Counted from the first letter of the stretch, positions 4,933-19,343 are shown. The stretch is 64,000 nt of DNA from a virus (IMGVR_UViG_3300029725_000197); one strand, 5' to 3'. A program made the numbers and translations. The notes: generated by a model from the sequence alone, not told the origin.

Positions 4933-5379
4933 ATGAAACAGGAAACAGCAGAGGACATGCTGGATTTTGCAAAAGAAGTCTGCCAGAAATACAGCAGGGT
5001 AAAAACGCTGGCGGAGGAAACACAAGTGCAGTGGAGGCGGGATCTTGAAATGGCTGCGGATTCTAAATATCCGGGTGAAAAGGAAATGTATGACCGGCAG
5101 GCAGAAGAAAGCCTTGCAAGGTATACAGCTCTAAGAGAGTGGCTTAAGCTGGCTGATGCAGCGGCGTTTCGGATCAGAGACAGTAAGGCACAGGTCGTTG
5201 TGAGACAGCACTGTCTGGACCGGATTCCTCTGAAAGCAGTCGAATTTGAGAATGGGAAGCACATGGGAAAAACAGCCGTCTTTTATCATAAAAAAATCGG
5301 GCTGCAGCAGTTTTCAGAAGAGCTTCTCTCCAGCAAGGAGCAGATGCGGCAGCTGGAAAAAAAGTTCTGCAAAAACTGA
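4933..5379 (+). CDS. hypothetical phage protein
   Basis: RBS AGAGGAGG 8 nt before ATG 4933. 148 aa. Confidence 0.45.
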   Translation: MKQETAEDMLDFAKEVCQKYSRVKTLAEETQVQWRRDLEMAADSKYPGEKEMYDRQAEESLARYTALREWLKLADAAAFRIRDSKAQVVVRQHCLDRIPLKAVEFENGKHMGKTAVFYHKKIGLQQFSEELLSSKEQMRQLEKKFCKN

Positions 5380-5415
5380 ACTTTACGAACGGAAACGAAC
5401 CGTTTTTGAACTTTT

Positions 5416-5452
5416 CCTTCTTAACTGTACATCGGTTTTTTGCTATACTTTA
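5416..5452 (+). promoter_or_regulatory. sigma70-type promoter with extended -10 (TGcTATACT)
   Basis: 'TTAACT…17 nt…TGCTATACT' upstream of the MazF-like gene. Confidence 0.35.
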
Positions 5453-5478
5453 AACTAGGAAAATAGGAAAACAAAGGC

Positions 5479-5525
5479 ATAAAGATACTGGAAAGCATCC
5501 GGTGTTTTTATGCCTTTTTACATTT
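5479..5525 (+). terminator. hairpin plus T-run (GGCATAAA…TTTATGCC TTTTTACATTT)
   Basis: 8-bp stem with a long loop followed by a T-rich tract. It closes the upstream operon before the MazF-like gene. Confidence 0.35.
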
Positions 5526-5589
5526 GCGGCCGCTATGAGGATTCCATCTTCAGCGGTCTTTTTGCTATCAAACTGGAGGTGAGATCCCA

Positions 5590-6153
5590 ATGGGGAGAAA
5601 GAAAAAGAATGCCCGGTCAGCAGCACATGGACGAAAGATCCACGTTAATAAATACATCAATCAGCGAGGAAAGACCAAGAAAAGGGCCGTAGCCTCCTGT
5701 CAGCCGGCACCTAATAGAGTGCTGCTTCAGGAGATGCCGCTTACCAGATGGCCGGTACCAAAGATACCGAAGCAGTATGAGATCTGGTTTGCAGAACTGG
5801 GGAATCATTATGGCACTTCGGTGCAGAGCGGAAACCGCCCGGTTCTGGTTATCAGCAACGATATGGCAAACCGCAATTCTCCGATCATCACGGTAATCCC
5901 GATGAGTTCCAAGCTGAAGAAGCTGGAGCTGCCGGTACACATTCTGGTCACCGGGAGAGACTGCGAAATGCTCCGGGATGAGGGACTGGAAGAATCCATT
6001 CTGCTGGTGGAGCAGATCACGACCATTGACAAGATGGTCCTGTGTAACCGGCTCTGCCGTGTGACCTCGGCCAAGAAAAAGCAGGAGATCGAAGCTGCTG
6101 TTAAAAAGCAGTTTGCGATGCAGGCTTGCATGGGAAGGGAGGCGCAGGCATGA
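5590..6153 (+). CDS. PemK/MazF-family endoribonuclease-like protein with ~50-aa basic N-terminal extension
   Basis: 'YEIWFAELGNHYGTSVQSGNRPVLVISNDMANRNSPIITVIPMSS' is the PemK/MazF core. RBS GGAGGTG 8 nt before ATG 5590. Its stop overlaps the primase start (ATGA). Confidence 0.65.
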   Translation: MGRKKKNARSAAHGRKIHVNKYINQRGKTKKRAVASCQPAPNRVLLQEMPLTRWPVPKIPKQYEIWFAELGNHYGTSVQSGNRPVLVISNDMANRNSPIITVIPMSSKLKKLELPVHILVTGRDCEMLRDEGLEESILLVEQITTIDKMVLCNRLCRVTSAKKKQEIEAAVKKQFAMQACMGREAQA

Positions 6154-8579
6154 TGGACATCAAGAACATTCCGGGCAAGCTGAAAACGACCTGTAGCTTC
6201 TGTGTCTGGAAGTTTGAAAAGCGCAATGGCCAGAAGACCAAGATGCCATTTAACCCGGCAACGGGGGAACGGGCGAGGATTAATGACCTGCGTACATTCT
6301 CAGATTTCAAGAATACCCTCGTCACTTATGCAATGGGCGGCTATGACGGTATCGGTATTGCTGTTGGCAACGGAATCGGAGCATTTGATATCGACCACTG
6401 TATCCGGGAGGATGGTACGCTGAACGATACGGCGGATACCGTCCTTTCCATCTTTCCTACGGCTTATGTGGAAAAATCTCCGTCCGGCAAAGGACTGCGA
6501 GGTTTCTTTTGTGTGCCGGAAGACTACGTCTATGACAAGACGGTCTACTACATCAACAACCGAAGCAAGGGTCTGGAAGTGTATATGCCCGGTGCGACAA
6601 ACCGCTTCGTCACCGTAACGGGAGATGTTTACCGCACAGGTGAGATCCCAAACGATGAAACGGCAATGACGACACTGCTGGATACGCTGATGAAGCGAAA
6701 CAAGCAGGTGCAGCAGACCCATTTTCAGCACCATTCGTACCTGGATGATGAGGCGGTCATTGCACACGCCAACGAAGCCAGCAACTCGGAAAAGTTCAAA
6801 AAACTCTTTGCCGGTGACTGGGAGGATCTCTACGGCAGCCAGTCGGATGCAGATATGGCACTGCTGTCGATTCTGGCATTCTGGTGCGGCTGTGATGAGG
6901 AGCAGATGGACCGTATCTTCCGTACTTCCGGTCTGATGCGTGACAAGTGGGACAGAAAACAGGCTGGTTCGACTTATGGTGCAATCTCTATCCGTAACAC
7001 GGTCAATACCTGTGCGGCCGTCTATATGCCGGTCAACGCACAGGATATCGTGGATGAGGAGTTTTCCAAGCTGGATGAGGATGACTATGTCGAATTCCAG
7101 CCGGATCTCACCAAGATCACGATCACGCTGGAGGAAATGGCACCGCACACAAATGCCCGGTATGGCAGAAATGAGATCGGCATGGGCAATATGTTTGCGG
7201 ATTATTTCAAGCAGATTGCCCGGTACAACAGTGAACGTAAAGGCTGGTATGTCTATGACGGATCTGTCTGGCGGCCGGACAAAGGCAATCTCAAGGTGTC
7301 GGAACTGGCAAAGCTGCTGGCGGACAAGCTGTATGTGTTTGCCCTGACGATCACCGAAGAGGATGCCAGGAAGCGGTTCATCGACCGTGTCCGAAAACTT
7401 CAGCTGCGTAAGAACCGGGAAACAATGTTAAGAGATGCCATGTCCGTGTACCCGATCTCCATGCAGGCATTCGACAGGAACAAGTATTTCTTCAACTGCA
7501 AAAATGGAACGTTGGATATGAGGACACTAGAATTCAGGGAACATCGGCCGGAGGATTATCTCACAATGGAATCCGGTATTACCTATGACCCGGATGCAGA
7601 CTGTCCACGCTGGCACTCGTTTATCAAGGAGGTCATGTGTGGAGATGCGGATCTGGCAGACTTTCTTCAGCGTTCTTTGGGATACGCCCTGACAGGAGAT
7701 ACCTCGCAGGAGTGTATGTTTATCCTTTACGGTGCCACTTCTCGAAACGGCAAAGGCACTGCAATGGAAACATTCCTGAAGATCATGGGCGACTATGGAA
7801 AGACATCGAATCCGGATATGCTGGCAGCTAAATTCCGTGGCGGGAACACAGGCGGACCTTCGGAAGAAGTGGCTCGTCTGGTCGGCTCCAGATTTGTAAA
7901 TATCTCTGAGCCGGAGAAGAAGATCACATTTAATGCAGCTCTCGTAAAAAGAATGACCGGCAACGATACCATCAACGCCCGATTCCTAAATGAGAACAGC
8001 TTTGATTTTGTGCCCGTGTTCAAGATTTTTATCAATACGAACTACCTGCCTAATGTCAATGATATGACTTTGTTCCAATCCGGCCGACTGAAGATCATCC
8101 CATTTAACCGTCACTTTGAAGAGGGAGAACAGGACCAGGGGCTGAAAGGACAGTTTGCGAAGCCGGAGAACCTGTCAGGTATTTTCAACTGGTGTCTGGA
8201 AGGGTACAAAAAGTTCTGCCAGCGGGGTTTGGAACTTCCGCAGGCTGTCACGAAAGCCACGGAAGATTACAAGGATGATTCTGATCGGATCGGGCAGTTC
8301 ATTGAGGCGTGGCTTGAAAAAGAGGATGGGTCGGAACTTCGGACGGCAGCAGCATACCAGCTGTACACAAAGTGGTGTGAGGAGAACGGGTATTCCTCAG
8401 AGAACCAGAAGAACTTTAAAAATGCTATCGGCGTGCATTTCAAAGTGGTCCGAAAGCGCCCCAAAGGCGGTGGCGGACAGACTACGCTGATCATGGACTG
8501 CAAGTTCAAGGAAGTAGAATCTGGAGCGGAAGACCTGACGGTACAGGACGCATATAAGCCAAAGGACAGTCTTTTGTAA
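6150..8579 (+). CDS. phage primase-helicase (prim-pol N-terminus + D5_N + P4-family SF3 helicase C-terminus)
   Basis: RBS GGGAGG before ATG 6150. Motifs 'GIGIAVGNGIGAFDIDHC' (prim-pol) and Walker A 'GATSRNGKGT' with the P4-primase C-terminal layout. Confidence 0.85.
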   Translation: MMDIKNIPGKLKTTCSFCVWKFEKRNGQKTKMPFNPATGERARINDLRTFSDFKNTLVTYAMGGYDGIGIAVGNGIGAFDIDHCIREDGTLNDTADTVLSIFPTAYVEKSPSGKGLRGFFCVPEDYVYDKTVYYINNRSKGLEVYMPGATNRFVTVTGDVYRTGEIPNDETAMTTLLDTLMKRNKQVQQTHFQHHSYLDDEAVIAHANEASNSEKFKKLFAGDWEDLYGSQSDADMALLSILAFWCGCDEEQMDRIFRTSGLMRDKWDRKQAGSTYGAISIRNTVNTCAAVYMPVNAQDIVDEEFSKLDEDDYVEFQPDLTKITITLEEMAPHTNARYGRNEIGMGNMFADYFKQIARYNSERKGWYVYDGSVWRPDKGNLKVSELAKLLADKLYVFALTITEEDARKRFIDRVRKLQLRKNRETMLRDAMSVYPISMQAFDRNKYFFNCKNGTLDMRTLEFREHRPEDYLTMESGITYDPDADCPRWHSFIKEVMCGDADLADFLQRSLGYALTGDTSQECMFILYGATSRNGKGTAMETFLKIMGDYGKTSNPDMLAAKFRGGNTGGPSEEVARLVGSRFVNISEPEKKITFNAALVKRMTGNDTINARFLNENSFDFVPVFKIFINTNYLPNVNDMTLFQSGRLKIIPFNRHFEEGEQDQGLKGQFAKPENLSGIFNWCLEGYKKFCQRGLELPQAVTKATEDYKDDSDRIGQFIEAWLEKEDGSELRTAAAYQLYTKWCEENGYSSENQKNFKNAIGVHFKVVRKRPKGGGGQTTLIMDCKFKEVESGAEDLTVQDAYKPKDSLL

Positions 8580-8602
8580 CTTTTTTTTCTGATTTTGGGT
8601 GC

Positions 8603-8717
8603 TTTGTAGCATGTAGCTGGTTTGTAGCCGAGATTTCATAACCTTTTTTATTATTACTTTCTTTTATAGCTTTCTTATATAAAATTCAGCTACATGGTTG
8701 CTACATGCTACATGAGT
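8603..8717. repeat. ori-like region: inverted and direct repeats of GTAGCATGTAGC / TTTGTAGC flanking a ~60-bp AT-rich core
   Basis: 8604-8629 TTTGTAGCATGTAGCTGGTTTGTAGCC and its reverse complement at 8688-8717 CAGCTACATGGTTGCTACATGCTACATGAG. Lies directly 3' of the primase gene. Confidence 0.5.
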
Positions 8718-8852
8718 TGAGAAGAAGAAAGGAAAATAAGAGAATGAACGGAAACCATGAACAGAGACAGGGCAGGCAGTCTTTGTGGGAGCCTATTTTT
8801 GGGCAAGGGCAAAGGCGGCCTGCTTTGTGATACATGAAAGAGAGGACAGAAC

Positions 8853-9920
8853 ATGAGTAAGATCATCACTTGTGAACAGGTCAGCAATGGCCATCCCGAT
8901 AAGATCTGTGACCAGATCGCAGATGCCATCGTGACCGACATTCTCCAGCATGACAAGACCGCCCGTGTGGCAATCGAGTGTCTGCTGAAGAAGAACCAGC
9001 TTTTTATTGCCGGCGAAGTCACCACCGACTACCGGCCAAACTACAACCAGATCGTCCACGATGTGTTCAATCGCATCGGTGCCGAAAAGCTGGGGTGGAA
9101 CCTGACCGAGCTTCTTCGCATCGGCATTCTGGTGGACAAACAGTCCCCGGACATTGCGCTGGGTGTGGATAAGGGCGGTGCCGGTGACCAGGGAATCATG
9201 TATGGCTACGCCACCAACGAGACGGCAGAGCAGATGCCGATTCCCTACATGGTCGCTACCAAGTTCCTGCAACTGTTAAAAAACCATCCGTCCAAGATGT
9301 TCCGTGCAGATGCCAAGGCACAGGTCAGCTACGATTACGACACCGGCCGCATCACCACCTTCCTCTGCTCTGTGCAGCACAGCCCGGATGTGGAGGTCAG
9401 CGACTTCCGGCACATCATCGAATCCATGATGGTGCTGGCCGCCTGCGAGTACGGTCTGGACGGCGACTTCACGAAGCTGGTCAATCCGACCGGCCGTTTC
9501 GTGCTGGGCGGCAGCTACGCCGACTGTGGTGTGACTGGCCGAAAGCTGGCGTGCGATACCTACGGCGGTATCGGTCGTATGGGTGGCGGCGCTCTGAGCG
9601 GTAAAGACCCCACCAAGGTAGACCGCTCTGCAGCATACATGGCGAGGAAGATTGCAAAGGACATCGTGCAGGCGGGCTACGCTGACAAGTGCGAAGTCCA
9701 GCTGGCTTACGCCATCGGCGTGTTACAGCCGGTGGGCGTGGCTGTAGAGTGCTTCGGCACGGAGCATCAGTCGCTGGACTTCATCGAAGCCTATGTCCAT
9801 GACAGCTACGACCTGACTCCGCAGGGTATCATCAAGCGGCTGGGACTGCTGGACGTGGACTACAACAAGGTCAGTGCTTACGGTCACTTCGGTAAGGCTG
9901 GTCTTCCGTGGGAGGACTGA
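8853..9920 (+). CDS. metK: S-adenosylmethionine synthetase (MetK homolog), phage-encoded
   Basis: 'GHPDKICDQIADAI' and 'GGAGDQGIMYGYA' are MetK hallmark motifs. 355 aa, shorter than bacterial MetK. Confidence 0.8.
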   Translation: MSKIITCEQVSNGHPDKICDQIADAIVTDILQHDKTARVAIECLLKKNQLFIAGEVTTDYRPNYNQIVHDVFNRIGAEKLGWNLTELLRIGILVDKQSPDIALGVDKGGAGDQGIMYGYATNETAEQMPIPYMVATKFLQLLKNHPSKMFRADAKAQVSYDYDTGRITTFLCSVQHSPDVEVSDFRHIIESMMVLAACEYGLDGDFTKLVNPTGRFVLGGSYADCGVTGRKLACDTYGGIGRMGGGALSGKDPTKVDRSAAYMARKIAKDIVQAGYADKCEVQLAYAIGVLQPVGVAVECFGTEHQSLDFIEAYVHDSYDLTPQGIIKRLGLLDVDYNKVSAYGHFGKAGLPWED

Positions 9921-9923
9921 CCC

Positions 9924-10283
9924 ATGCCATACAGACCAAAGACACCGTGCCATCATCCCGGCTGCCCAGAGCTGGTGGAAGCCGGCCGGCTCTACTGTGA
10001 GAAGCACCTGCCTCTCCATCCAGAGGTGACCCGCCCGGCAGCGAAGCGTGGATACAACAGGCGGTGGCAGAAAGTCAGAAAGTCGTATCTGGAAGCTCAT
10101 CCACTCTGTGTGCAGTGCGCCAAGCAGGGCAAGTACGTCCGGGCAACGGTTGTGGATCACATCATTCCACACCGTGGTGACCAGAAGCTTTTCTGGGATC
10201 AGAACAACTGGCAGCCGCTCTGCAAAAGCTGCCACGATAAGAAGACCCTGAACGAAGACATCAACCCGACCTACACCTACTGA
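9924..10283 (+). CDS. HNH endonuclease
   Basis: CxxC…'VDHIIPHRGD…NWQPLCKSCHDKKT' HNH motif. Confidence 0.85.
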   Translation: MPYRPKTPCHHPGCPELVEAGRLYCEKHLPLHPEVTRPAAKRGYNRRWQKVRKSYLEAHPLCVQCAKQGKYVRATVVDHIIPHRGDQKLFWDQNNWQPLCKSCHDKKTLNEDINPTYTY

Positions 10284-10287
10284 CAGC

Positions 10288-10352
10288 CCCACCGGGGCCG
10301 GGGCCACTTCTCTACGGTGAAGTCACACGGAGACCGGTGGCCCCTTTTCTGT
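10288..10352 (+). terminator. rho-independent terminator (GGGGCCAC…GTGGCCCC TTTTCT)
   Basis: GC-rich inverted repeat followed by a T-run just after the HNH stop. Confidence 0.5.
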
Positions 10353-10683
10353 GAAAAACCGCAAAATTGGTAGGCCGGGGGTCAGAGGAATAACGGCGCA
10401 AAATGAAACAGGAAAATGTACAGGCATCGGAGCTTTCGTTCCGGTGCCATTCTTATTCCCCGAAATGAACCAAAGTGTGTGAAACTTCTCGAAAACAGGG
10501 AGCTTTCGCACATTTTAGCTTGTTCCGGGAGGAGCGAGGGCGAGCGAGAATCGGCCGCCGCAACAACAATTCAACCGGGCGGGACGGGGCCGATTTCCAC
10601 TTCGCCGCTTTTCGTATGAATTATGAGATTTTTCTAAGAAACCGCCGAAGAAACGGCGAAAAATGAGAGTGAGGTGAGGGCAG

Positions 10684-10983
10684 ATGGATGATTACACGGC
10701 TGAGATGATAAGGGACATGGCTTTTTCGTTCTGCCCTCAGTGCGGTACAGCCATTGTGCCGAATCATAAAGGCAGACCGAAAAAGTTCTGCTCACCGGAA
10801 TGCCGGTCAAGGTGGAACAACACCCACCCAAAGCCGGAAAACTGGAGAACAGTGCGGTCAAAGATCTGTCCGGTGTGCGGCAGGGAGTTTTCCTACCGGC
10901 ATCAGTACGGATTGGAACGGAAATATTGCAGCCGTGGTTGTGCAAACCGGGGCAGAAAGAAGGAGGCGAACAGGAGTGAGTAA
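10684..10983 (+). CDS. zinc-ribbon (2x CxxC…CxxC) hypothetical protein
   Basis: RBS 'gaggtgaggg' upstream. 'CPQCG…CSPEC…CPVCG…CSRGC' cysteine pairs. Confidence 0.55.
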   Translation: MDDYTAEMIRDMAFSFCPQCGTAIVPNHKGRPKKFCSPECRSRWNNTHPKPENWRTVRSKICPVCGREFSYRHQYGLERKYCSRGCANRGRKKEANRSE

Positions 10984-11203
10984 GAAAATTATCGGTGTGT
11001 ATCCGATGTTCAACACCGGGGGTATCTGTGTACATGCGATTGACGATGCGGAAGATAAGGTCCTGGCATCTGTGAATGGGGAAAACCCGGAATGGTGCGA
11101 GATGGCTGAACAGCCGCAGGAAGATGGAGATGAAATGGAGTCGGGCTTTTTGTTCGACTCCTTTTTCGTGCCGTTTTCAGGGGTCATTCGCATGGGAATC
11201 TGA
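10976..11203 (+). CDS. hypothetical small acidic protein (GTG start)
   Basis: RBS AAGGAGG 10 nt before GTG 10976. 75 aa, fills the gap to the methyltransferase gene. Confidence 0.3.
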   Translation: MSKKIIGVYPMFNTGGICVHAIDDAEDKVLASVNGENPEWCEMAEQPQEDGDEMESGFLFDSFFVPFSGVIRMGI

Positions 11204-11219
11204 ATTAGGAGGAACCTAC

Positions 11220-12491
11220 ATGAAAGCGACTGCTGAACTGAAGATGCTGCCGGTGTCCGTACTCAAGCCGGCTGCATACAATCCCCGGAAAAAGCTGAAG
11301 CCGGGGGATAAAGAGTACGAGAAAATCAAGAACTCCATTACGGAGTTCGGCTTCGCAGATCCTTTGGTGGTCAATGCCGACATGACGATTATCGGTGGTC
11401 ACCAGAGACTGACAGTAGCGATGGAGCTGGGCTACACCGAAGTGCCTTGCGCGGTGGTGGACATCGACAAGACCAGGGAGAAGGCCCTGAACATCGCACT
11501 CAACAAGATCACGGGTGCATGGGATGATTCCCTGCTGGCTAATCTTTTGAAGGATATTGAGGATTCCAACTTCGATCTTGGAAAGACCGGTTTTGAACCG
11601 CCGGAGATCGAGACGCTGTTCAACAAGGTACACAGCAAAGAAGTCAAGGAAGATGACTTCGATGTGGAATCGGAACTAAAACAGCCGTGCTTTTCCAAAG
11701 AGGGCGACCTCTGGCATCTGGGAAAGCACATCGTTCTGTGTGGTGATTCCACCAAAGCGGAATGCTACGACACCCTGATGGACGGCACCAAGGCAAATCT
11801 GGTACTTTCCGATCCCCCTTATAACGTGGATGTGGAAGAAACGGCTGGCAAGATCCTGAACGACAACATGGGCGATTCGGAATTCTACCAGTTCCTGCTG
11901 GCAGCATTCCAGCTGATGCACGGGCATCTGGCGGATGACGGCTCCATCTATATCTTCCATGCAGATACGGAAGGGCTGAACTTTAGAAAGGCATTCAAGG
12001 ATGCAGGGTTCTACCTGTCCGGGTGCTGTATCTGGAAGAAGAATGCTCTGGTGCTGGGACGCAGTCCTTACCAGTGGCAGCACGAGCCGTGTCTTTACGG
12101 CTGGAAGCAGAAGGGGAAACACCAGTGGTATTCCGACCGGAAGCAGACGACCATCTGGGAGTATGACCGGCCGAAGTCCAACAAGGACCATCCGACCATG
12201 AAGCCCATCGGCCTGATGAGCTATCCGATCCGAAATTCCACCATGACCAACGGCATCGTCCTCGATCCGTTCCTTGGCAGCGGTTCTACCCTGATCGCCT
12301 GCGAAGAAACCGACCGTGTGTGCCGAGGCATCGAGCTGGACCCGAAGTTCGTGGATGTGATCGTGAAGCGTTATATCGAACACAGCGAGGGTCACTACGA
12401 TGATGTGTATGTCATCCGTGACAGTCAGAAGCTGAAGTTCGAGGAAGTGGCGACCTTCGAGCCGGAAAGGGAGGTCGCTGATGGAGAATAA
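11220..12491 (+). CDS. ParB-like nuclease domain fused to N6-adenine/N4-cytosine DNA methyltransferase
   Basis: RBS AGGAGGA before ATG 11220. N-terminal ParB/Srx fold ('ADPLVVNADMTIIGGHQR'), 'SDPPY' motif IV, and C-terminal 'DPFLGSGST' SAM-binding motif. Confidence 0.85.
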   Translation: MKATAELKMLPVSVLKPAAYNPRKKLKPGDKEYEKIKNSITEFGFADPLVVNADMTIIGGHQRLTVAMELGYTEVPCAVVDIDKTREKALNIALNKITGAWDDSLLANLLKDIEDSNFDLGKTGFEPPEIETLFNKVHSKEVKEDDFDVESELKQPCFSKEGDLWHLGKHIVLCGDSTKAECYDTLMDGTKANLVLSDPPYNVDVEETAGKILNDNMGDSEFYQFLLAAFQLMHGHLADDGSIYIFHADTEGLNFRKAFKDAGFYLSGCCIWKKNALVLGRSPYQWQHEPCLYGWKQKGKHQWYSDRKQTTIWEYDRPKSNKDHPTMKPIGLMSYPIRNSTMTNGIVLDPFLGSGSTLIACEETDRVCRGIELDPKFVDVIVKRYIEHSEGHYDDVYVIRDSQKLKFEEVATFEPEREVADGE

Positions 12492-14610
12492 ACAGCTGAC
12501 CCTCGGCAGCCTCTTTGATGGCTCCGGGGGTTTTCCATTGGGCGGGCTTTTGACCGGGCAGATCACTCCGGTGTGGAGCAGTGAGATCGAGCCGTTTGCC
12601 ATCCGAGTCACGACCAAGCGTCTGCCGCAGGTGAAGCATTATGGAGATGTGTCTGCTATCAGCGGTGCAGACCTACCTCCTGTAGACATCATCACTTTTG
12701 GCAGTCCCTGTCAGGATATGTCCATCGCGGGTAAGCGGGACGGTCTGGATGGTTCACGGTCCAGCCTGTTTTACGAAGCAATCCGAATCGTGAAGGAAAT
12801 GAGGTGTAAGACCAATGGAGAAAAACCAAGATTTATCGTGTGGGAGAATGTGCCAGGGGCCTTCTCCTCAAACAAAGGACAGGACTTCAAAGCAGTCCTC
12901 GAAGCCGTCATCGGTGTTAAAGAACCGGCCGCCTCGGTGCCTGCGCCTGAGAAGAAAGGATGGTCCGACGCTGATTACTACGTGGGAGACGGATGGAGCG
13001 TCGCGTATCGAGTTTTTGATGCACAATGGTGGGGCGTTCCCCAAAGAAGAAAACGTATCTATCTTGTCGCAGATTTTGCAGACCAGAGTGCCCCAAAGAT
13101 ATTATTTGAGTCCGAAGGCGTGTCTCGGTATTCTGCGGAGGGCTTCCGTGCGTGGCAAAGAGCTGCCGCCGGTGCTGAAAGCGGCGCTGGAGAGACAGGC
13201 TGCAGTGGAGCAGGAGGACGGCTCTGTCTGAACGATCAGGGCGGAGAGAGGATGGATGTGACGGAGGAGGTGACAGCCACCCTCCGTGCGGAGGCACATC
13301 ATCCGCCGTGTGTTATGGAAGCCGCTGGTTTCTGTACCGAGCATTCCGCAAATGCCAGAAGCATTGGATACGAAGAGGAACGGTCACCGACCCTCCGGGC
13401 TGGTGTCGTGCCGGCCGCCATCGCACTGGAAAATCATCCTGCGGACAGCCGGGTGAAGATTTCCGAGGACGGTAAGGTACAGACACTGACAAGCCGGTGT
13501 GGTACGGGTGGCGGTAATGTCCCGATGGTCATGGACGCTGTTGAAAATTCAGTGGAAAGCCCGGTGAAAGAAGTTGAAAACTCTCCGGCGGTCACATTGA
13601 AGATCCGTTCCGGGTGTGAAGGCGGTGGCAAGGGCGCTATCTGGCAGGAAGAAAAGTCAGCTACCCTCGGCTGCAACAACGACCAGACACTGTTCGTTCC
13701 GAAATGCTACGGTGTCTGCTCTAAAGCCAGCCACTCCATGATGTCCGATAATCCGCATAGCGGCTTCTATGAAGCGGAGACCTCCCGGACACTAGACCGC
13801 AGTGGTGGAGATCCGACCTGCAATCAGGGTGGTATCTGCGTGGTAGAGCCGGTCGCCTTTACCCAGAACCAGAGGGATGAAGTCCGAGATCTTGGAGAAA
13901 AGTCAGCGGCACTTGCAGCAGAGCCGGGGATGAAGCAGCAGACCTTCGTCCTGCAGGGCAACATGATCGGCCGCAAGGATGAGAACGGTCCGAAAGGGGA
14001 TGGCGTCAATGAGGATGTCTGCTTCACCTTGGACGCGACAGACCGCCATGCAGTCTGCGCACCGGAGGATGTGTATGCCATGACCACCGGCTCCTATATG
14101 CAGGTGGCAAAAGAGGTCGCACCGACTCTGATGGCACGGGACTACAAAGACCCGACCACCATCGCACCGGTGCCGCATCTGAACGAGGGTGTCATGGGAA
14201 CGGTGGCAACCGGGGCGCATCCAAGCGGCTTCAACGGGCAGGATGCTTTCAATGACCGTCTGGTCATCGATAACCCGGAAGCGCAGCCGATACCTGTGAC
14301 CTATACCGTCCGCCGCTTGACACCGACCGAGTGTGCTAGACTGCAGGGCTTCCCGGACTGGTGGTGCCGGAACCTTGGAACAGAAGATCCGACCGAAGAA
14401 GAGCTGGCGTTCTGGGCAGATGTGTTTGAAACGCACCGCAAGATCGTGACCCACGCCAAGAAGCCGAAAACGGAGAAACAGATCCGGAAATGGCTGGCTG
14501 ACCCGTATACGGATTCGGCAGAGTACCGTATCTGGGGCAACGGCATATGCCTGGCCAACGCATTTTTTGTTCTGGCAGGCATCGCATGGTGTGCAGGTCT
14601 GGAAGAATAA
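12481..14610 (+). CDS. DNA (cytosine-5)-methyltransferase, unusually large (709 aa; multi-TRD candidate)
   Basis: Motifs FDGSGG (I), GSPCQDMS (IV), ENVPG (VI), QWWGVPQRRKRIY (VIII) and a C-terminal 'RLTPTECARLQGFPDWW…GNG' (IX/X). About 400 aa of variable region lie between VIII and IX. Confidence 0.85.
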   Translation: MENKQLTLGSLFDGSGGFPLGGLLTGQITPVWSSEIEPFAIRVTTKRLPQVKHYGDVSAISGADLPPVDIITFGSPCQDMSIAGKRDGLDGSRSSLFYEAIRIVKEMRCKTNGEKPRFIVWENVPGAFSSNKGQDFKAVLEAVIGVKEPAASVPAPEKKGWSDADYYVGDGWSVAYRVFDAQWWGVPQRRKRIYLVADFADQSAPKILFESEGVSRYSAEGFRAWQRAAAGAESGAGETGCSGAGGRLCLNDQGGERMDVTEEVTATLRAEAHHPPCVMEAAGFCTEHSANARSIGYEEERSPTLRAGVVPAAIALENHPADSRVKISEDGKVQTLTSRCGTGGGNVPMVMDAVENSVESPVKEVENSPAVTLKIRSGCEGGGKGAIWQEEKSATLGCNNDQTLFVPKCYGVCSKASHSMMSDNPHSGFYEAETSRTLDRSGGDPTCNQGGICVVEPVAFTQNQRDEVRDLGEKSAALAAEPGMKQQTFVLQGNMIGRKDENGPKGDGVNEDVCFTLDATDRHAVCAPEDVYAMTTGSYMQVAKEVAPTLMARDYKDPTTIAPVPHLNEGVMGTVATGAHPSGFNGQDAFNDRLVIDNPEAQPIPVTYTVRRLTPTECARLQGFPDWWCRNLGTEDPTEEELAFWADVFETHRKIVTHAKKPKTEKQIRKWLADPYTDSAEYRIWGNGICLANAFFVLAGIAWCAGLEE

Positions 14611-14742
14611 AATGGCCCGCTATATTACTAGGTAGAAAGCGACCTGGTGATATGGTGGGCTTACATATTGGTCCTATTTACACAACAGATTTCGCAGTCC
14701 CTTGTGTAATTAGTCGAACATGAAGAATATCGGGAAATGGCC

Positions 14743-14800
14743 TTGCTATTTGACCGGTTCAGAGTGATATATGTGCTACCGAAAAGAACATCGGGATGCA
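14743..14800 (+). promoter_or_regulatory. promoter cassette copy P8 (TTGCTA-17-…ATAT…accgaaaag leader)
   Basis: Diverged copy of the repeated cassette, upstream of 14835. Confidence 0.4.
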
Positions 14801-14834
14801 CAAAAACAGAAGAAAACGAAAGGGGCAATGAATT

Positions 14835-15911
14835 ATGTTGAAATTTGAATTGAACATAGCCGACCGTAAGACACTTGCAAATCGCATGGAGGAGCTGACG
14901 GGCATCCATCCTTACTACACCAGAGCACCGCTGTATGCTTATGACATCGGCAACTACACCATCGACCGGGACGGTAATCTTCTGGTAGAGCCGGAAAATG
15001 CAGATGCCGAGCTGCTGACGACCCTGCTGAATGAGGGGTTGATCCGCGGCGGCGAGAGCATTGAGAGCACGGATGACCAGCCGGAGGACGCAGAGCCGAC
15101 CGAGAATTTGGCAGATGAGTCTGTGGCCGAAGAGGAGCCGGATGGTGCAACAGAGGATGAGCCAGATGCAGAGGAATCGGAAAGCGAAGAGCAGCCGGAA
15201 GCAGAAGAGCAGCCGGAGGAAGTTCCGCTGGATCTGGAACTTGCTTTTCCCACCAGCCAGCATAACGGCGTGAGCCTTCGCAATCTGGTCAACCTCATCT
15301 ACAGCCGGGGCCGACTCATCAGCAAGGCAACGGGCGGGCACTTTCATGTGGAAACTGACCTGGTCGAAACACTGCGGGATGACAGTTGCACCTACACGGT
15401 GGCAAACTTCATCGAGGCGCTTAAAAGTTACGAAGCACAGTGCGGAACTGCGATGGAAGGTCTGGTGATCACAGAAGAAAAGGTTTCCTCCACAGGATTC
15501 CCGACGGCTTCCGACTATGATCATCTGACGGCTTTCGGTCACCTTGCCATTCTGATGAACCAGCAGGCGATCAGCCAGAAGCGCATCCAGGCAAAGGATG
15601 TCAACGATGAGAATGAGAAGTATGCACTCCGCACATGGCTCCTGCGGCTTGGGATGAACGGTCCGGATTTCAAAGAGACCCGCAAGATCCTCATGGAGAA
15701 TCTTTCCGGCCATGCGGCTTTCCGGACGGATGAGGAAGCACAGAAGTTCCTTGCAAGGGAAAAGGCAAAACGGGATGCCCTGAAAGCCGCGAAACAGGCG
15801 GCACAGAACAGCAATCCTGCCACTGGGGAAACGGCCGCACAGGATGCAGCCCAGCCGACACAGCCCGACTGTGGGGCGAATACGGCGCAGATGCTGGAGG
15901 CGGGAGCGTAA
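14835..15911 (+). CDS. diverged amidoligase (Amidoligase_2/GS-like) paralog with ~70-aa poly-acidic insert
   Basis: Aligns by eye to 16144-17082: 'FELNIADRKTLANRMEELTG'~'VEIEMNNITREKAARKVAEYFG', 'NLVNLIY'~'NLVNIMA', 'GGHFHVE'~'GCGVHIHIG'. Shares the C-terminal motif KYA[LM]R.W[LM]LRLG…AA[FW]R. Large D/E-rich insert at aa 75-135. Confidence 0.55.
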   Translation: MLKFELNIADRKTLANRMEELTGIHPYYTRAPLYAYDIGNYTIDRDGNLLVEPENADAELLTTLLNEGLIRGGESIESTDDQPEDAEPTENLADESVAEEEPDGATEDEPDAEESESEEQPEAEEQPEEVPLDLELAFPTSQHNGVSLRNLVNLIYSRGRLISKATGGHFHVETDLVETLRDDSCTYTVANFIEALKSYEAQCGTAMEGLVITEEKVSSTGFPTASDYDHLTAFGHLAILMNQQAISQKRIQAKDVNDENEKYALRTWLLRLGMNGPDFKETRKILMENLSGHAAFRTDEEAQKFLAREKAKRDALKAAKQAAQNSNPATGETAAQDAAQPTQPDCGANTAQMLEAGA

Positions 15912-16067
15912 GCTCCCAAGCCCCCAATGGGGGCCGGAAAATAAGTGAGACCCTCTTCAATTGTACCGATATTAACTCTGAAAATGTACATTATCAAGCA
16001 GATAAACCGCAGAAATGTACACGATCATTCTGCCTCATATTTGTCGAATATATGTTCTTTTATATCC

Positions 16068-16130
16068 TTGCTATTATCCGCACCTGACGGTAATATGCAC
16101 ATACCGAAAGGGAAAACAAGGAAAAAACAA
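16068..16130 (+). promoter_or_regulatory. promoter cassette copy P7 (TTGCTA-17-TAATAT gcacataccgaaaggg)
   Basis: -35/-10 elements with 17-nt spacing and the conserved leader, upstream of the amidoligase gene. Confidence 0.5.
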
Positions 16131-16143
16131 AGGAGAACATACC

Positions 16144-17082
16144 ATGAACGATAAAACAAGAGAGCAGATTGAAGCCATGAAAAACCAGACCATCGGAGTT
16201 GAGATCGAGATGAACAACATCACCAGAGAAAAAGCGGCAAGAAAGGTTGCCGAGTACTTCGGAACCAGAGCATGGAACGCCGCCAGCGAGTACGGATATT
16301 ACAGCTGGGCTTGCAAGGATGGACAGGGCAGGGTTTGGAAATTCCAGAGGGATGTGAGCATCTACGGACCGGACGCAGAAAAATGCGAACTGGTCACCCC
16401 GATCCTCACCTACGACGACATCGAATCCCTGCAGGAAATCATCCGGCTGCTCCGCAAGGCAGGCGCAAAGAGCAGTCCAAGCCGCGGATGCGGGGTCCAC
16501 ATCCACATCGGCAAAGGCGACCACACCGCAAAGACCATCCGCAACCTTGTGAACATCATGGCGGCACACGAACAGCAGATCGGCAGAGCCATCCGGATCG
16601 ACGCAGGGCGTACCGGACAATATTGCCGGGTAGTCGAGCACCGCTTCCTCGACCGGCTGAACCGCGAGAAGCCGACCACCATGCGCAAGCTGGAAGACAT
16701 CTGGTACGAAGGCAACGGTTCCAGCTGGGAAAACCGGAATGCCCACTACAATTCAAGCCGGTACCATATGCTGAACCTCCATGCCACCTTTACAAAAGGA
16801 ACCATTGAATTCCGCCTTTTCCAATTCGCAGACCCAGCGGACGGAAAGCGTAACGGACTGCATGCCGGTGAGATGAAAGCCTACATCCAGCTTTGCCTCG
16901 CAATGAGCCAGCTTGCCAAGATGGTCAGAACGGCAAGCCCGAAGCCTCAGCAGACCGACAACGACAAATACGCAATGCGGTGCTGGATGCTCCGGCTGGG
17001 ATTCATTGGTGAGGAGTTCGCAACGGCAAGGGAAATCCTTCTGCGGAATATGGAGGGCAACGCAGCATGGCGCAACAAATAA
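16144..17082 (+). CDS. putative amidoligase (carboxylate-amine ligase, Pfam Amidoligase_2-like)
   Basis: 'IGVEIEMN', 'GCGVHIHIG' and 'GTIEFRLFQ' motifs typical of the phage amidoligase family. 312 aa. Confidence 0.65.
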   Translation: MNDKTREQIEAMKNQTIGVEIEMNNITREKAARKVAEYFGTRAWNAASEYGYYSWACKDGQGRVWKFQRDVSIYGPDAEKCELVTPILTYDDIESLQEIIRLLRKAGAKSSPSRGCGVHIHIGKGDHTAKTIRNLVNIMAAHEQQIGRAIRIDAGRTGQYCRVVEHRFLDRLNREKPTTMRKLEDIWYEGNGSSWENRNAHYNSSRYHMLNLHATFTKGTIEFRLFQFADPADGKRNGLHAGEMKAYIQLCLAMSQLAKMVRTASPKPQQTDNDKYAMRCWMLRLGFIGEEFATAREILLRNMEGNAAWRNK

Positions 17083-17150
17083 GCGCCAGCTGTACGGGCA
17101 CCTTTTGGGCGGGCAACCGCCCTTGAGGTGGTAGAAGGAGGTGCAGGTTT

Positions 17151-17387
17151 ATGAAAAGCACGTTAAAAAATGAAAGCACACCGGGCGGCAGGACCTTTAA
17201 GGTGACCATCACCGAGACCTACCAGAGAACGGTGACCATTTATGAATCCGAAATGAAAGAGCCGACCGTGCAGGAAGCCCAGCGAGTGGCAGAGGACTGG
17301 TGGCAGGACAGCCAGATTGAGCTTGGGACAGATGATTTCCAGGGCGTGGAATTCACTGGCAGGGAGGACGGTGAGGCGGATGTTTGA
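17151..17387 (+). CDS. small acidic hypothetical protein
   Basis: RBS GAAGGAGGTG before ATG 17151. 78 aa, between the amidoligase and GGCT genes. Confidence 0.5.
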   Translation: MKSTLKNESTPGGRTFKVTITETYQRTVTIYESEMKEPTVQEAQRVAEDWWQDSQIELGTDDFQGVEFTGREDGEADV

Positions 17388-17901
17388 ATTGATCAGCCGA
17401 AGCCCATCCAGATATTATCTTGCCTACGGAAGCAACCTCGACATGGAGCGGATGGGAAAGAGATGCCCCTATGCTGTGGTGGTCGGCACGACCGAGATCA
17501 AGGGCTACCGGCTTCTGTTCAAAAAGAGCAAGACCGGCTGCTATGCCACCATTGAGCAGGACGCCAATGAAAGCGTACCGGCAGTGGTCTGGAAGCTCTC
17601 GGAATATGATGAGCTCCTGCTGGACCGGTACGAGGGCTGCCCAAGATACTACTACAAGAAACAGTTTCAGCTTCCGGTCTGGAACCTGAACGGGAACCGC
17701 ATGAAAAAGGCAAAGCCCTGCATCGCTTATGTGATGCACGAGGACCGGCGGCTTGGCTGCCCGGATGCCGAGTATTTTGAACTGCTGCGCGGCGGATACA
17801 GCGACTGGGAATTTCCGCTGGACACACTGAAGCGTGGACTGGCAGCTAGTATCGGAAGGGCGGAAGCCATCCGGTATCTGAAGAAGCAGCAGATGATGTA
17901 A
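17380..17901 (+). CDS. gamma-glutamyl cyclotransferase-like (AIG2/GGCT fold) protein 1
   Basis: 'YYLAYGSNL' N-terminal motif and 'VVW…YEG.P..Y' pattern. ATG 17380 overlaps the upstream stop. Confidence 0.65.
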   Translation: MFELISRSPSRYYLAYGSNLDMERMGKRCPYAVVVGTTEIKGYRLLFKKSKTGCYATIEQDANESVPAVVWKLSEYDELLLDRYEGCPRYYYKKQFQLPVWNLNGNRMKKAKPCIAYVMHEDRRLGCPDAEYFELLRGGYSDWEFPLDTLKRGLAASIGRAEAIRYLKKQQMM

Positions 17902-18031
17902 GAGTACACGATCAAAAGCAAAAAACATTGTGCAGTATATGATGCTCATCGGCCTTGATAAATCAGGGCAGAAGAGTGATATATACCATACCGCCAGACA
18001 AGAGCGGAGAAAACCGAAGGGAGAGATTCAA

Positions 18032-18511
18032 ATGAAGAACAAGAAATATTACATCGCCTACGGCAGCAACCTGTCGGTGGAGCAGATGGCATACCGGTGT
18101 CCGGATGCAAAAATTGCAGGGCAGGCGGTGCTGGCAGGCTGGGAGCTTTTGTTCCGGGGCTGCGCCACCATCGCACCGAACCCGAAGAAGAACACGCCGG
18201 TTCTGGTGTGGGAGATTTCGGAAAGGGACGAAGGAAACCTCGACCTCTATGAGGGCTACCCGAATTACTACCGCAAGGAAGACCTGAACATCGAACTGCT
18301 CCGGGAAGGGGCAGAACCGGAGATGGTGACCGCAATGGTATATATCATGGAGAACGACTTCGGACGCCGCGCACCGAGCCGGTATTACTACAAAGTTCTG
18401 CATGACGGCTATAAGGCATTCCGCTTCCCGATGCACATCCTCGAAGGTGCGCTGAAGGAATGCATGGATAAGGATGCCGCCCAGCGGATGATCGAGGAGG
18501 TGCAGGCATGA
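18032..18511 (+). CDS. gamma-glutamyl cyclotransferase-like (AIG2/GGCT fold) protein 2
   Basis: 'YYIAYGSNL…LVWEISE…LDLYEGYPNYY' is paralogous to 17380-17901. Confidence 0.65.
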   Translation: MKNKKYYIAYGSNLSVEQMAYRCPDAKIAGQAVLAGWELLFRGCATIAPNPKKNTPVLVWEISERDEGNLDLYEGYPNYYRKEDLNIELLREGAEPEMVTAMVYIMENDFGRRAPSRYYYKVLHDGYKAFRFPMHILEGALKECMDKDAAQRMIEEVQA

Positions 18512-18975: not shown

Positions 18976-19343
18976 AGGTTCTTCTGATCAAACCGATGGA
19001 GCATCCGCAGGTGGTGGACATTGAAAACTCCCTGAAAGAGTTCTACCGCATCCTCGACTGCGACTGCATCACAGCCACCTACCCGTGGGAAGAACGCGCC
19101 GTCCTGGTCACCGATGACAACGGGCTGTTCACCGAGAAGTCATTCAGCAGATACGTTCCGGAGCTGGAGCAGCCCATCAAGGGAAACTTCTTCATCTGCG
19201 GATTGGGCGAGGAAGATTTCGCAGAGCTGCCCCAGGACCTCATCCAGAAATTCAGGGAACGCTTCTGGGTGCCGGAGGCATTCGTCAGCATGTTCGGGCA
19301 GATGGCAGTCATCCAGATGGATGACGGAACGAAGCCGGAATAA
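18972..19343 (+). CDS. DUF3846-like protein
   Basis: 'MKVLLIKPMEHPQVVDIENSLKEFYRIL…NFFICGLGEEDFAEL' fits the DUF3846 pattern (from memory). Start overlaps the upstream stop. Confidence 0.45.
   Translation: MKVLLIKPMEHPQVVDIENSLKEFYRILDCDCITATYPWEERAVLVTDDNGLFTEKSFSRYVPELEQPIKGNFFICGLGEEDFAELPQDLIQKFRERFWVPEAFVSMFGQMAVIQMDDGTKPE

Follow-up and report, generated by a model that had tools for sequence, protein, structure and literature searches.

A phage-encoded S-adenosylmethionine synthetase beside two orphan DNA methyltransferases in a Heliusvirales-type phage of gut Clostridia

The viral DNA analyzed here (IMGVR_UViG_3300029725_000197), a stretch of 64,000 nucleotides that we call the window, carries at 8853-14610 a gene for an S-adenosylmethionine (SAM) synthetase, MetK, followed by genes for an HNH endonuclease and two DNA methyltransferases. 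This region is the middle part of the phage genome, between the replication and the packaging genes. Together with its flanks it is laid out as follows:

8580..8852, + strand: intergenic region upstream of metK, 273 nt, AT-rich
8853..9920, + strand: MetK, S-adenosylmethionine synthetase, 355 aa, short phage-type clade, PHROG 1569
9924..10283, + strand: HNH endonuclease, 119 aa, PF01844, phrog_144
10684..10983, + strand: Zn-ribbon protein, 99 aa, phrog_2308 and phrog_1271
10976..11203, + strand: strongly acidic ORF, 75 aa, GTG start after AGGAGG
11220..12491, + strand: ParB_N-fused beta-class N6/N4 amino-methyltransferase (ParB-MTase), 423 aa, phrog_498
12481..14610, + strand: orphan C5-cytosine methyltransferase, 709 aa, PF00145 and TIGR00675
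14835..18511, + strand: downstream block with a 358-aa protein, Amidoligase_2 and two gamma-glutamyl cyclotransferase-like proteins

The four ORFs that a preliminary description had claimed for 8853-14610 all lie where it had put them, on the + strand, and its identification of their products as MetK, HNH, ParB-N6/N4-MTase and C5-MTase is borne out by domain profiles and alignments.

The MetK protein scores well above the cut-offs for the three Pfam domains of the family (PF00438, PF02772 and PF02773; N, M and C domains 91.4, 86.9 and 186.6 bits against 33.1, 29 and 25) and for the NCBIfam equivalog TIGR01034 (394.2 bits against 309.4). Residues 4-354 match E. coli MetK structures (3e-92), and the protein matches phrog_1569 at 2e-134. 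Alignments and a motif scan find the motifs GHPDK, GAGDQG, DAKxQV, GRK and GKDxxKVDRS conserved. In an E. coli numbering that we take from our own mapping, the counterparts of H14, D16, K17, E42, D118 (GAGDQG), K165, F230, D238, R244, K245, K265, K269 and D271 are all identical, and the catalytic and substrate-binding positions are invariant in a further alignment. Loss-of-function substitutions at catalytic residues, which would have spoken against a working enzyme, do not occur in the alignment. Measured against ten relatives, metK has a dN/dS of 0.02-0.11. Judged by these comparisons, the window MetK is intact and catalytically complete, and its gene is under strong purifying selection. The phage protein thus shares the fold family, all catalytic motifs and the equivalog-level score with housekeeping MetK (E. 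coli, PDB 7ll3/1fug; Firmicutes), but it is a smaller version of it. It has 355 aa compared to 380-400 aa in the bacterial enzymes, its gating loop counts 7 residues compared to 18-25 in the Firmicute hosts sampled, four residues are deleted between GAGDQG and DAKxQV, and the C-terminal tail is missing.

A further difference lies in front of the gene. Firmicute metK genes under S-box control have an RF00162 leader, while the window metK has no SAM-I riboswitch; upstream of it Rfam returned no match to a SAM riboswitch, neither at the gathering threshold nor at E<=1. In the positive control RF00162 was found upstream of three of four host metK genes (loci L095, L098 and L102), and it was present in none of three viral loci (phiNJ3, Brigit and L226). 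The 273-nt leader contains GCTACATG repeats and an imperfect inverted repeat of 32 nt (8605-8636 / 8681-8712). Rfam likewise gave no RNA element for the 400 nt that follow the HNH gene. The sole Rfam match, to mir-1010 inside the acidic ORF, is at chance level and was discarded. Promoter and terminator predictions across 5000-19000 were not above shuffled expectation in number. This applies also to a terminator-like hairpin at 10423-10448, between the HNH and the methyltransferase genes; another hairpin, at 11137-11161, falls within coding sequence.

The ORF of the ParB-fused methyltransferase opens at 11076, but the true start codon is an ATG at 11220; it follows an AGGAGG at a distance of 7 nt, and the domain matches set in at the same place. 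Both domains are above their cut-offs (N6_N4_Mtase 98.7 bits, ParB_N 34.9 bits), and the protein matches phrog_498 at 5.5e-186 and the PADLOC family MTase_II at 7e-172. Its SDPPYN and FLGSGST motifs align with those of M.HpyAVI (5hek). The DPPY motif lies N-terminal to the FxGxG SAM motif, as in the beta class, and the ParB domain is at the N-terminus. A link to M.EcoGII and Hia5, adenine methyltransferases without sequence specificity, was considered and dropped, as the three papers on these enzymes make no mention of ParB.

The gene of the C5 methyltransferase overlaps the end of the ParB-MTase gene by 11 nt. The enzyme matches PF00145 (142.5 bits), TIGR00675 and, at 2e-273, the PADLOC orphan methyltransferase oMTase PDLC03715. 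Alignment to M.HhaI places motifs I-VIII in residues 1-199 and motifs IX-X in residues 609-709, with motifs I, IV, VI, VIII, IX and X visible as LFDGSGG, GSPCQ, WENVPG, PQRRKR, RRLTPTECARLQGFP and GNGI. Between motifs VIII and IX lies a variable region of ~410 aa with about 9-10 tandem cassettes that resemble target recognition domains (TRDs). Nine units, each centered on T/A-L, are spaced 23-42 aa apart; in a leave-one-out HMM test five of these score above all 300 shuffles, a sixth is borderline and the other three do not pass. Close relatives of 693-821 aa differ in which cassettes of ~25-42 aa they have, and metagenomic relatives have variable regions of up to ~700 aa. Since its ~410-aa variable region is built of this many TRD-like cassettes, the enzyme is probably a large multispecific methyltransferase with many different targets. 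The cassette-built region, which the preliminary description missed, is a more unusual feature than the pairing with metK.

Multispecific C5 enzymes of Bacillus phages carry 2-4 TRDs, compared to about 9-10 units in the window enzyme. The span from motif VIII to motif IX is 423 aa in the window, 220 aa in SPR and 284 aa in rho11s and H2. The overall plan is the same: M.SPRI, M.Phi3TI/M.SPbeta, M.Rho11sI and M.H2I are also orphan C5 enzymes with a standard core and an enlarged VIII-IX region, made of contiguous ~30-40-aa units that are each centered on a T-L/V dipeptide. These enzymes are known from the work of the Trautner laboratory (cited in PMC8936443). In searches of a four-sequence database the similarity to known TRDs is weak: unit 8 resembles the 'FTVNTIDRHGVA' segment of SPR/SPbeta (40% over 35 aa, E 0.06) and unit 3 the 'SPTLTTMGGGH' segment of H2/SPbeta (45% over 33 aa, E 0.6). 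An HMM of the window units finds the S-P-T-L-T cores alone in the Bacillus enzymes (i-E 0.17-4), which is too weak to assign cassette specificities, and such an assignment was given up. The AlphaFold2 model of the enzyme is unusable (mean pLDDT 29.7, from an alignment of n=10 sequences, 92-98% identical); almost all homologous proteins among the matches listed are >=95% identical. Mapping target motifs cassette by cassette would help to infer host range from the genomes of gut phages, and enzymes of this build could yield programmable multi-site 5mC methyltransferases.

The phage of the window is a Heliusvirales-type temperate phage (siphovirus) of gut Clostridia, a placement based on the large terminase subunit TerL. 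TerL homology is tied to the Heliusvirales marker genes, nine in all (PMC11283538), and the window TerL shows this homology. It is 76.8% identical to TerL of Clostridium phage NatCom_42228, and the NatCom record inspected (an Evtepia phage) carries the taxonomy 'Ca. Heliusvirales'. A prophage of Clostridium fessum encodes a MetK 97% identical to that of the window. Streptococcal Javan and S. suis phages are 76-77% identical in TerL. Across the Heliusvirales and streptococcal relatives MetK is 57-61% and the methyltransferase domain of the ParB-fused enzyme 71-76% identical to that of the window. The gene order is common to phiNJ3 (KT336320), the Javan phages and Heliusvirales: primase/helicase, MetK, HNH, Zn-finger protein, ParB-type adenine methyltransferase and terminase, with the C5 methyltransferase present or absent. 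The window is an expanded gut version of this arrangement. Its C5 methyltransferase has 709 aa, compared to 424-432 aa in the Evtepia phage and in S. cristatus, and amidoligase and GGACT genes form a further addition.

That phages rarely carry metK, as had been claimed, is half right. It holds for phage records at large, where 139 of 50,697 have a MetK match, but in this lineage the gene is standard: among 1032 Heliusvirales genomes de Jonge et al. 2024 (PMC11283538) found dcm in 67% and metK in 58.9%, and suggested an anti-restriction role. Kieft et al. 2021 (bioRxiv 10.1101/2021.01.05.425418) had noted metK together with dcm. Thus, the combination of metK with methyltransferases and its anti-restriction rationale are not new but in print for a common phage lineage, and the finding as first submitted adds little, since it describes once more a feature already published as typical of a phage order that is very common in the human gut. 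In IMG/VR we counted 402 close relatives of the window MetK. A MetK match in an Acinetobacter 'phage' was dropped, as the non-Firmicute record inspected is plainly a bacterial chromosome. H. pylori-type matches were also left out as phage-encoded MetK, because H. pylori prophages often integrate beside the host metK.

The comparison of loci shows how closely MetK and the methyltransferases are linked. In all 55 long loci with a short-type MetK the ParB-MTase is found no more than 10 kb away, in 54 of them a C5 methyltransferase is present too, and many relatives have a third methyltransferase. A methyltransferase lies within 10 kb in three of 55 long genome loci, all three with a phage-type MetK, and in none of the host-type metK loci (<=49% identical). 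In two genome loci with a short-type MetK (L087 and L091) no methyltransferase was detectable by the seeds within 10 kb. Other viral lineages repeat the pairing in different arrangements. Contigs of the L226 type have the order HNH, MetK, ParB-MTase, TerS and TerL, and the MetK and methyltransferase frames overlap by 8 nt. In L222-type contigs the order is reversed, with the ParB-MTase followed 23 nt later by MetK, while in phi1605 a long-type MetK occupies the same slot. In most Brigit-type loci with enough downstream sequence, MetK lies ~3 kb upstream of a DAM-like-phage1::GNAT gene and a ParB-like gene; Brigit gp21 belongs to a different methylase-like family (Pfam). Altogether at least five viral MetK lineages, defined as separate branches of an NJ tree without bootstrap, place the gene 0-3.5 kb from an adenine methyltransferase or methyltransferase-like gene with ParB fused or adjacent. 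Judging from this gene order, it is the ParB-fused methyltransferase that accompanies MetK from lineage to lineage as its conserved partner. Some of these pairings may have been inherited as synteny and not have arisen independently. MetK looks like a booster at most, not a requirement, for the methyltransferases, since NatCom (Heliusvirales) records are few among the MetK matches as against ~20 among the long C5-methyltransferase matches, and since dcm is the more frequent of the two genes in Heliusvirales.

We lean towards the reading, to which we give slightly better than an even chance, that MetK supplies SAM for self-methylation of the phage DNA by the two orphan methyltransferases, with the HNH protein as a packaging bystander. 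This reading, proposed already in the preliminary description as a means of anti-restriction, is the best supported one, owing to the repeated linkage of MetK and methyltransferases in separate lineages, which is an argument by comparison and not a demonstration. Upon induction or infection metK would be transcribed from the phage's own riboswitch-free leader, and its expression would not be subject to the SAM feedback by which metK is held down in many Firmicute hosts. Given its intact motifs, equivalog-level score and strong purifying selection, the enzyme is expected to convert methionine and ATP to SAM. The SAM would then be consumed by the ParB-fused adenine/N4 methyltransferase and by the C5 methyltransferase with its many probable targets. 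Progeny DNA methylated at many motifs would withstand type II restriction when it enters the next host. By a rough count, which is an estimate based on motif site numbers, ~9 short motifs would take several thousand methyl groups per 60-kb genome, in addition to uptake by the host chromosome. Such a demand might be of the order of the whole SAM pool of the cell and would account for a synthetase of the phage's own in the company of the methyltransferases. Our literature search found no experiment linking a phage MetK to phage DNA methylation. The sole study in which a metK of a related prophage was knocked out describes phenotypes in aggregation and biofilm of the host rather than in methylation (PMC8223999).

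These phenotypes suggest a different role, in which MetK is a moron-like gene of lysogenic conversion that is expressed from the prophage, raises SAM in the host along with products of the activated methyl cycle (AI-2, polyamines), and alters aggregation, biofilm and lysogen fitness, so that the proximity of methyltransferases is incidental. In the GBS prophage 12/111phiA deletion and complementation of metK changed flocculation, chain length and glycocalyx, although complementation was partial and confounded by secondary mutations according to the authors (PMC8223999). The 273-nt upstream region with its repeats could carry an independent promoter, but metK is part of the lytic block that runs from replication to packaging, and it is read from the strand of that block. 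Lysogenic conversion also leaves unexplained why several viral MetK lineages lie beside ParB-associated methyltransferases just upstream of the terminase, and why the MetK and methyltransferase frames overlap in one of them. We therefore regard it as rather unlikely. Kieft et al. read metK as an auxiliary metabolic gene of general effect, one that diverts methionine and sulfur metabolism during infection, for instance towards homocysteine, cysteine or sulfide, and is not specific to DNA methylation; de Jonge et al. offer this as an alternative. The Pfam-scanned ORFs of the window, however, include no ahcY, mtnN, luxS, cys or other methionine-cycle or sulfur gene, the sole SAM-using neighbors are the DNA methyltransferases, and the linkage pattern is specific to these, which makes this role improbable in our eyes.

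We give similarly little credit to a counter-defense function, in which MetK would restore SAM after depletion by a competitor or the host, or would perturb BREX or type I/III restriction as had been proposed. SAM levels do matter for BREX and type I restriction, according to the T3 SAMase work, and a MetK with a gating loop and C-terminal tail unlike those of Firmicute enzymes could escape inhibitors of the host MetK. The manipulation of BREX and type I/III systems nevertheless found no support. These systems require SAM, so that extra SAM should help the host, and the strategy known from T3 is to destroy SAM. The T3 SAMase, a SAM lyase, is comparable as a phage function aimed at the SAM pool of the host and connected with restriction and BREX, but it destroys SAM and inhibits MetK to disarm defenses, while the window phage is predicted to make SAM, and the two proteins are unrelated. 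MetK has no match in PADLOC, and no work on such a role of a phage MetK was found in the literature search. The last alternative takes the HNH protein and the methyltransferases as a restriction-modification or addiction module that stabilizes the prophage, with HNH as the nuclease. HNH nucleases act as restriction enzymes in some systems, and a putative restriction-modification system was described near such genes in the GBS prophage (PMC8223999). The 119-aa HNH protein, however, matches the HNH of phage GVE2 (5h0m, 1.4e-13) over its full length, residues 1-110, while its PADLOC matches are marginal (E 3e-5 to 7e-4). GVE2 HNH and HK97 gp74 are endonucleases that we take to work with terminase. 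In all relatives the HNH gene adjoins metK, and in phiNJ3 and the L226-type loci it lies 2.5-4 kb from TerL; in the window it is ~13 kb from TerS (23414). HNH travels with MetK and terminase, not with one particular methyltransferase, and it stays constant among relatives that differ in their methyltransferases (2-3 genes, with changing cassettes). The C5 enzyme family is classed as orphan by PADLOC, and no restriction enzyme that could be the cognate partner of a methyltransferase was detected by PADLOC in the ten proteins scanned. We consider a restriction-modification module very improbable indeed. The likeness to GVE2 HNH and the closeness to terminase genes in relatives suggest that HNH is probably a packaging-associated nuclease rather than a modification enzyme, and most likely it is merely located in the same block; its inclusion in a modification module was not upheld.

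The preferred reading of SAM supply for self-methylation can be extended to a 'methylation burst' unit, a proposal that we make tentatively and that may well turn out to be wrong. In such a unit a riboswitch-free minimal MetK would be genetically, and sometimes translationally, coupled to ParB-associated adenine methyltransferases in several lineages and, in the gut lineage, also to a hyper-multispecific C5 enzyme with 9-10 or more exchangeable cassettes, with SAM supply as the limiting factor. If so, the exchangeable TRD cassettes would set a strain-specific anti-restriction repertoire, SAM supply rather than methyltransferase abundance would limit full protection of the progeny DNA, and the cassette arrays would unite more C5 specificities in a single polypeptide than any other natural enzyme. 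SAM-limited self-methylation, once shown, would connect phage metabolic genes to anti-restriction, a connection that has so far only been suggested.

Two small genes between the HNH and methyltransferase genes had been left off the earlier gene list. The acidic 75-aa ORF has no match in Pfam or PADLOC. The Zn-ribbon protein at 10684-10983 has weak Pfam Zn-ribbon matches below the cut-offs, it is kept between HNH and methyltransferase at 80-98% identity in related loci, and its counterpart in phiNJ3 is annotated as 'zinc-finger protein'. Downstream and outside the region described, the 358-aa protein corresponds to the N-part of phrog_2443, and the block at 14835..18511 to which it belongs is co-conserved in 45-52 of the 55 long related loci.

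The ORF list and Pfam agree with the preliminary description that four genes of the region 8853-14610, namely those for MetK, an HNH protein and two methyltransferases, lie at the coordinates claimed on the + strand, and every domain of the four scores over the curated cut-off. For the ParB_N-fused N6/N4 methyltransferase (ParB-MTase) the identity stands, but the start at 11076 does not. The true start is the ATG at 11220, 7 nt past an AGGAGG, and all profile matches start there. The genes of the region and those directly following are:

8853-9920, + strand: MetK, 355 aa (ORF list and Pfam)
9924-10283, + strand: HNH protein, 119 aa (Pfam; phrog_144)
10684-10983: Zn-ribbon protein, between HNH and ParB-MTase
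10976-11203, + strand: acidic ORF of 75 aa, just upstream of ParB-MTase
11076-12491, + strand: ORF with ParB_N and N6_N4_Mtase domains (Pfam; phrog_498)
12481-14610, + strand: cytosine-C5 methyltransferase (C5-MTase), 709 aa (Pfam; phrog_116/38038)
14835-18511: a 358-aa protein (N-part of phrog_2443), an Amidoligase_2 protein and two gamma-glutamyl-cyclotransferase-like (GGACT) proteins, directly after the methyltransferases
18508-19343: DUF4314 and DUF3846 proteins, after the GGACT genes

MetK is intact. We looked for the loss-of-function substitutions that would have spoken against the proposed SAM supply and found none: GHPDK, the K+-site glutamate, GAGDQG, DAKxQV, TGRFV, DCGxTGRK and GKDPxKVDRS are all retained. 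The protein matches phrog_1569 over its full length (2e-134, PHROGs) and the NCBIfam equivalog TIGR01034 with 394 bits (cut-off 309), and E. coli MetK crystal structures align to residues 4-354 (3e-92). Compared with sampled Firmicute host enzymes, MetK proteins of this phage-type clade (short-type MetK) have a gating loop of 7 instead of 18-25 residues, lack four residues after GAGDQG and are without the C-terminal tail, yet they keep all motifs. The phage metK is under strong purifying selection (dN/dS = 0.02-0.11). No S-box riboswitch was found upstream of the phage metK; with the same tool RF00162 was detected upstream of host metK in 3/4 Firmicute controls and in 0/3 other viral metK loci. 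The missing S-box and the purifying selection are further support for a supply of SAM to self-methylation.

What viral MetK is constantly paired with is not the C5-MTase but an adenine methyltransferase(-like) gene that carries a fused ParB domain or has one next to it. We asked whether the association exceeds inherited synteny, using long loci (>=15 kb) and a neighbourhood of 10 kb. A ParB-MTase lies within this distance in 55/55 long loci with short-type MetK, and a C5 methyltransferase is present in 54 of the 55. No methyltransferase was detectable within 10 kb of any host-type chromosomal metK (<=49% identical), and in long genome loci one was found in 3/55 only, all three with phage-type MetK. 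Two short-type loci fit less well, as no methyltransferase was detectable there with the seeds used. More telling than these counts, the pairing recurs in two distant viral lineages, where MetK and ParB-MTase are direct neighbours in opposite orders. Contigs of the first lineage (L226 type) encode a MetK of 371 aa that is 43-45% identical to that of the window, their TerL is just 43% identical, and their gene order is HNH, MetK, ParB-MTase, small terminase, large terminase, with an overlap of 8 nt between the MetK and ParB-MTase reading frames (L226 10004-12434). Contigs of the second (L222 type; L222 3207-5647) have ParB-MTase and then MetK, with 23 nt between them. In the Erysipelothrix phage phi1605 a long-type MetK occupies the same slot. 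Faecalibacterium phage Brigit and most of the related loci that extend far enough downstream carry another methylase-like gene about 3 kb downstream of MetK, a fusion of PF22555 (DAM-like-phage1) with PF22559 (GNAT-like); a ParB-like gene and the terminase come next. A neighbor-joining tree, built without bootstrap and thus indicative only, places these viral MetKs on separate branches amid bacterial sequences. Since these viral MetK lineages are linked to ParB-associated methyltransferases, it is this adenine methyltransferase(-like) gene that we regard as the constant partner. This recurrent pairing across viral lineages is worth carrying forward, as is the cassette-built C5-MTase described below.

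Brigit gp21 (12009-14335 in the Brigit locus), annotated as hypothetical, is a PF22555-PF22559 fusion; it lies about 2 kb downstream of the Brigit MetK and is followed by a ParB-N protein. The gp21 product may modify adenine in a way that goes beyond plain methylation.

The C5-MTase is unusual in having a variable region of about 410 aa, between the end of motif VIII (near residue 199) and the start of motif IX (609). The corresponding region of M.HhaI has about 98 aa; counted from motif VIII to IX, M.SPRI has 220 aa and both M.Rho11sI and M.H2I have 284 aa. Nine units spaced 23-42 aa apart, each with a T/A-L dipeptide centre, can be recognized in this region; in a leave-one-out HMM test five of them beat 300/300 shuffles, one was borderline and three failed. 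Close relatives of the enzyme (693-821 aa, otherwise 74-99% identical) differ in that whole cassettes of about 25-42 aa, all with an x-T/A/P-L/V core of their own, are cleanly present or absent. When the variable region alone served as query in an exhaustive search, 3747 representatives (50% clustering) were returned; 1612 had E<=1e-10, and many matched in 2-8 separate stretches. Among the metagenomic relatives, proteins that appear complete are up to 968 aa long and have variable regions of up to about 700 aa. The family already has its own PADLOC profile, an "orphan methyltransferase" model of 719 positions. Judged from its sequence, the C5-MTase is probably a large multispecific enzyme of exchangeable target-recognition domain (TRD) cassettes, and would be an enlarged variant of the known multispecific kind. 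Residues ~200-608 read as an array of about 9-10 TRD-like cassettes, and their gain or loss can be seen among near-identical phages, in the related loci L005, L014, L033, L050, L051, L064, L070 and L072. Two units are similar to TRD segments of the classical multispecific enzymes from Bacillus phages, both with weak E-values: unit 8 to "FTVNTIDRHGVA" in SPR and SPbeta (40% identity across 35 aa), and unit 3 to "SPTLTTMGGGH" in H2 and SPbeta (45% across 33 aa). In many close relatives a stand-alone third N6_N4 methyltransferase of 259-269 aa is encoded between ParB-MTase and C5-MTase (e.g. L006 14106-14885; L050 3922-4731); it is absent from the window, and the methyltransferase cluster is thus a variable island.

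Could such an enzyme load strain the SAM supply? The 64-kb window contains, for instance, 148 GGCC, 524 CCGG, 107 GCGC, 409 GCNGC and 291 AGCT sites. By a rough estimate, to modify one genome copy at about nine such specificities would take several thousand methyl groups, and 50-100 genomes in a burst would use up a few hundred thousand molecules of SAM, with the host chromosome as an extra sink. A bacterial cell contains roughly 1e5 SAM molecules in its pool, and on these rough figures a SAM limitation of phage methylation is therefore plausible. Short palindromes are unevenly represented in the window: relative to Markov expectation GGCC (0.51), CGCG (0.41) and ACGT (0.47) are depleted, CCGG (0.98), AGCT (0.98) and TCGA (1.00) are not. 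If self-methylation lifts selection against sites, the undepleted ones may hint at phage-methylated motifs.

The idea that MetK supplies SAM for self-methylation is partly supported by the linkage across viral MetK lineages. However, the metK-methyltransferase set and its interpretation are already known. De Jonge et al. (2024, PMC11283538) reported that in 1032 Heliusvirales genomes the putative auxiliary genes met most often are those for DNA (cytosine-5)-methyltransferase (67%) and for S-adenosylmethionine synthetase (58.9%), and suggested an anti-restriction role. Kieft et al. described viral MetK clades separate from bacterial ones, in which the substrate-binding motifs are conserved and dN/dS is below 1, as well as genomes, S. 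suis phages included, that combine "connected" genes, metK and dcm for example (bioRxiv 10.1101/2021.01.05.425418). The earlier statement that phages rarely carry metK holds across all phages, with matches in 139/50,697 phage records, but fails within this lineage, as the Heliusvirales frequency indicates. The literature that we searched contained no experiment connecting any phage MetK to DNA methylation. NatCom (Heliusvirales) records are few among the MetK matches and about 20 among the long C5-methyltransferase matches; given this and the lower frequency of metK than of dcm in Heliusvirales, MetK looks like a booster at most. A role of MetK in the lysogen is suggested by a related GBS prophage, in which deletion of the "endonuclease-metK" region altered aggregation and biofilm formation (Renard et al. 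2021, PMC8223999).

Two other parts of the proposed module fit less well with self-methylation. The HNH protein had been counted as a member, but it matches the HNH protein of phage GVE2 and its gene lies near the terminase in relatives, and we read it as a putative packaging nuclease outside the modification chemistry. A PADLOC scan of ten proteins found no restriction enzyme. Manipulation of BREX or type I/III systems is without support; those systems use SAM, and the known phage counter-measure against SAM-using defences is SAM removal.

All long ORFs of the window are on the + strand, and it also encodes a SNF2 helicase, a D5-type primase, a P27-family small terminase, a large terminase and a 1984-aa ORF. 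This large terminase shares 76-77% identity with its counterparts in streptococcal Javan prophages, S. suis phages (phiNJ3, phiSC070807) and Clostridium phage NatCom_42228; the NatCom record inspected is classified as Candidatus Heliusvirales. A MetK 97% identical to that of the window occurs in a Clostridium fessum SNUG30386 prophage, and IMG/VR holds 402 close relatives of the window's MetK. Annotated relatives share the order primase/helicase, MetK, HNH, zinc-finger protein, ParB-type adenine methyltransferase, terminase. IMG/VR loci keep the whole block of MetK, HNH, Zn-ribbon, ParB-MTase, C5-MTase, 358-aa protein, amidoligase and GGACT genes, and its 14835-18511 part is co-conserved in 45-52 of 55 related loci.

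Some further features deserve mention. The 273-nt gap between primase and metK (8580-8852) matches no known RNA family; in it, an imperfect inverted repeat of 32 nt and several copies of GCTACATG surround an AT-rich spacer, and the gap could be an operator, promoter, origin or primase terminator. The acidic 75-aa ORF is D/E-rich with the C-terminal end ...ESGFLFDSFFVPFSGVIRMGI and matches no family; to call it a possible DNA-mimic or anti-restriction candidate is pure speculation. A PemK/MazF-like toxin domain with a basic N-terminal extension of about 60 aa (5590-6153) overlaps the start of the D5-type primase; no antitoxin was recognised for this gene. Evtepia phage NatCom_11697 likewise has an annotated MazF-like gene. 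H. pylori prophages often integrate beside the host metK. A MetK match in an Acinetobacter phage proved to be host DNA. Public phage records with annotation errors are PV036427.1, KT336320.1 and CAKLQH020000039.1: the MetK of Evtepia phage NatCom_11697 is mislabelled "peptidase", the HNH protein of phiNJ3 is mislabelled "holin", and contig 39 of "Acinetobacter phage MD-2021a" is ordinary bacterial chromosomal DNA.
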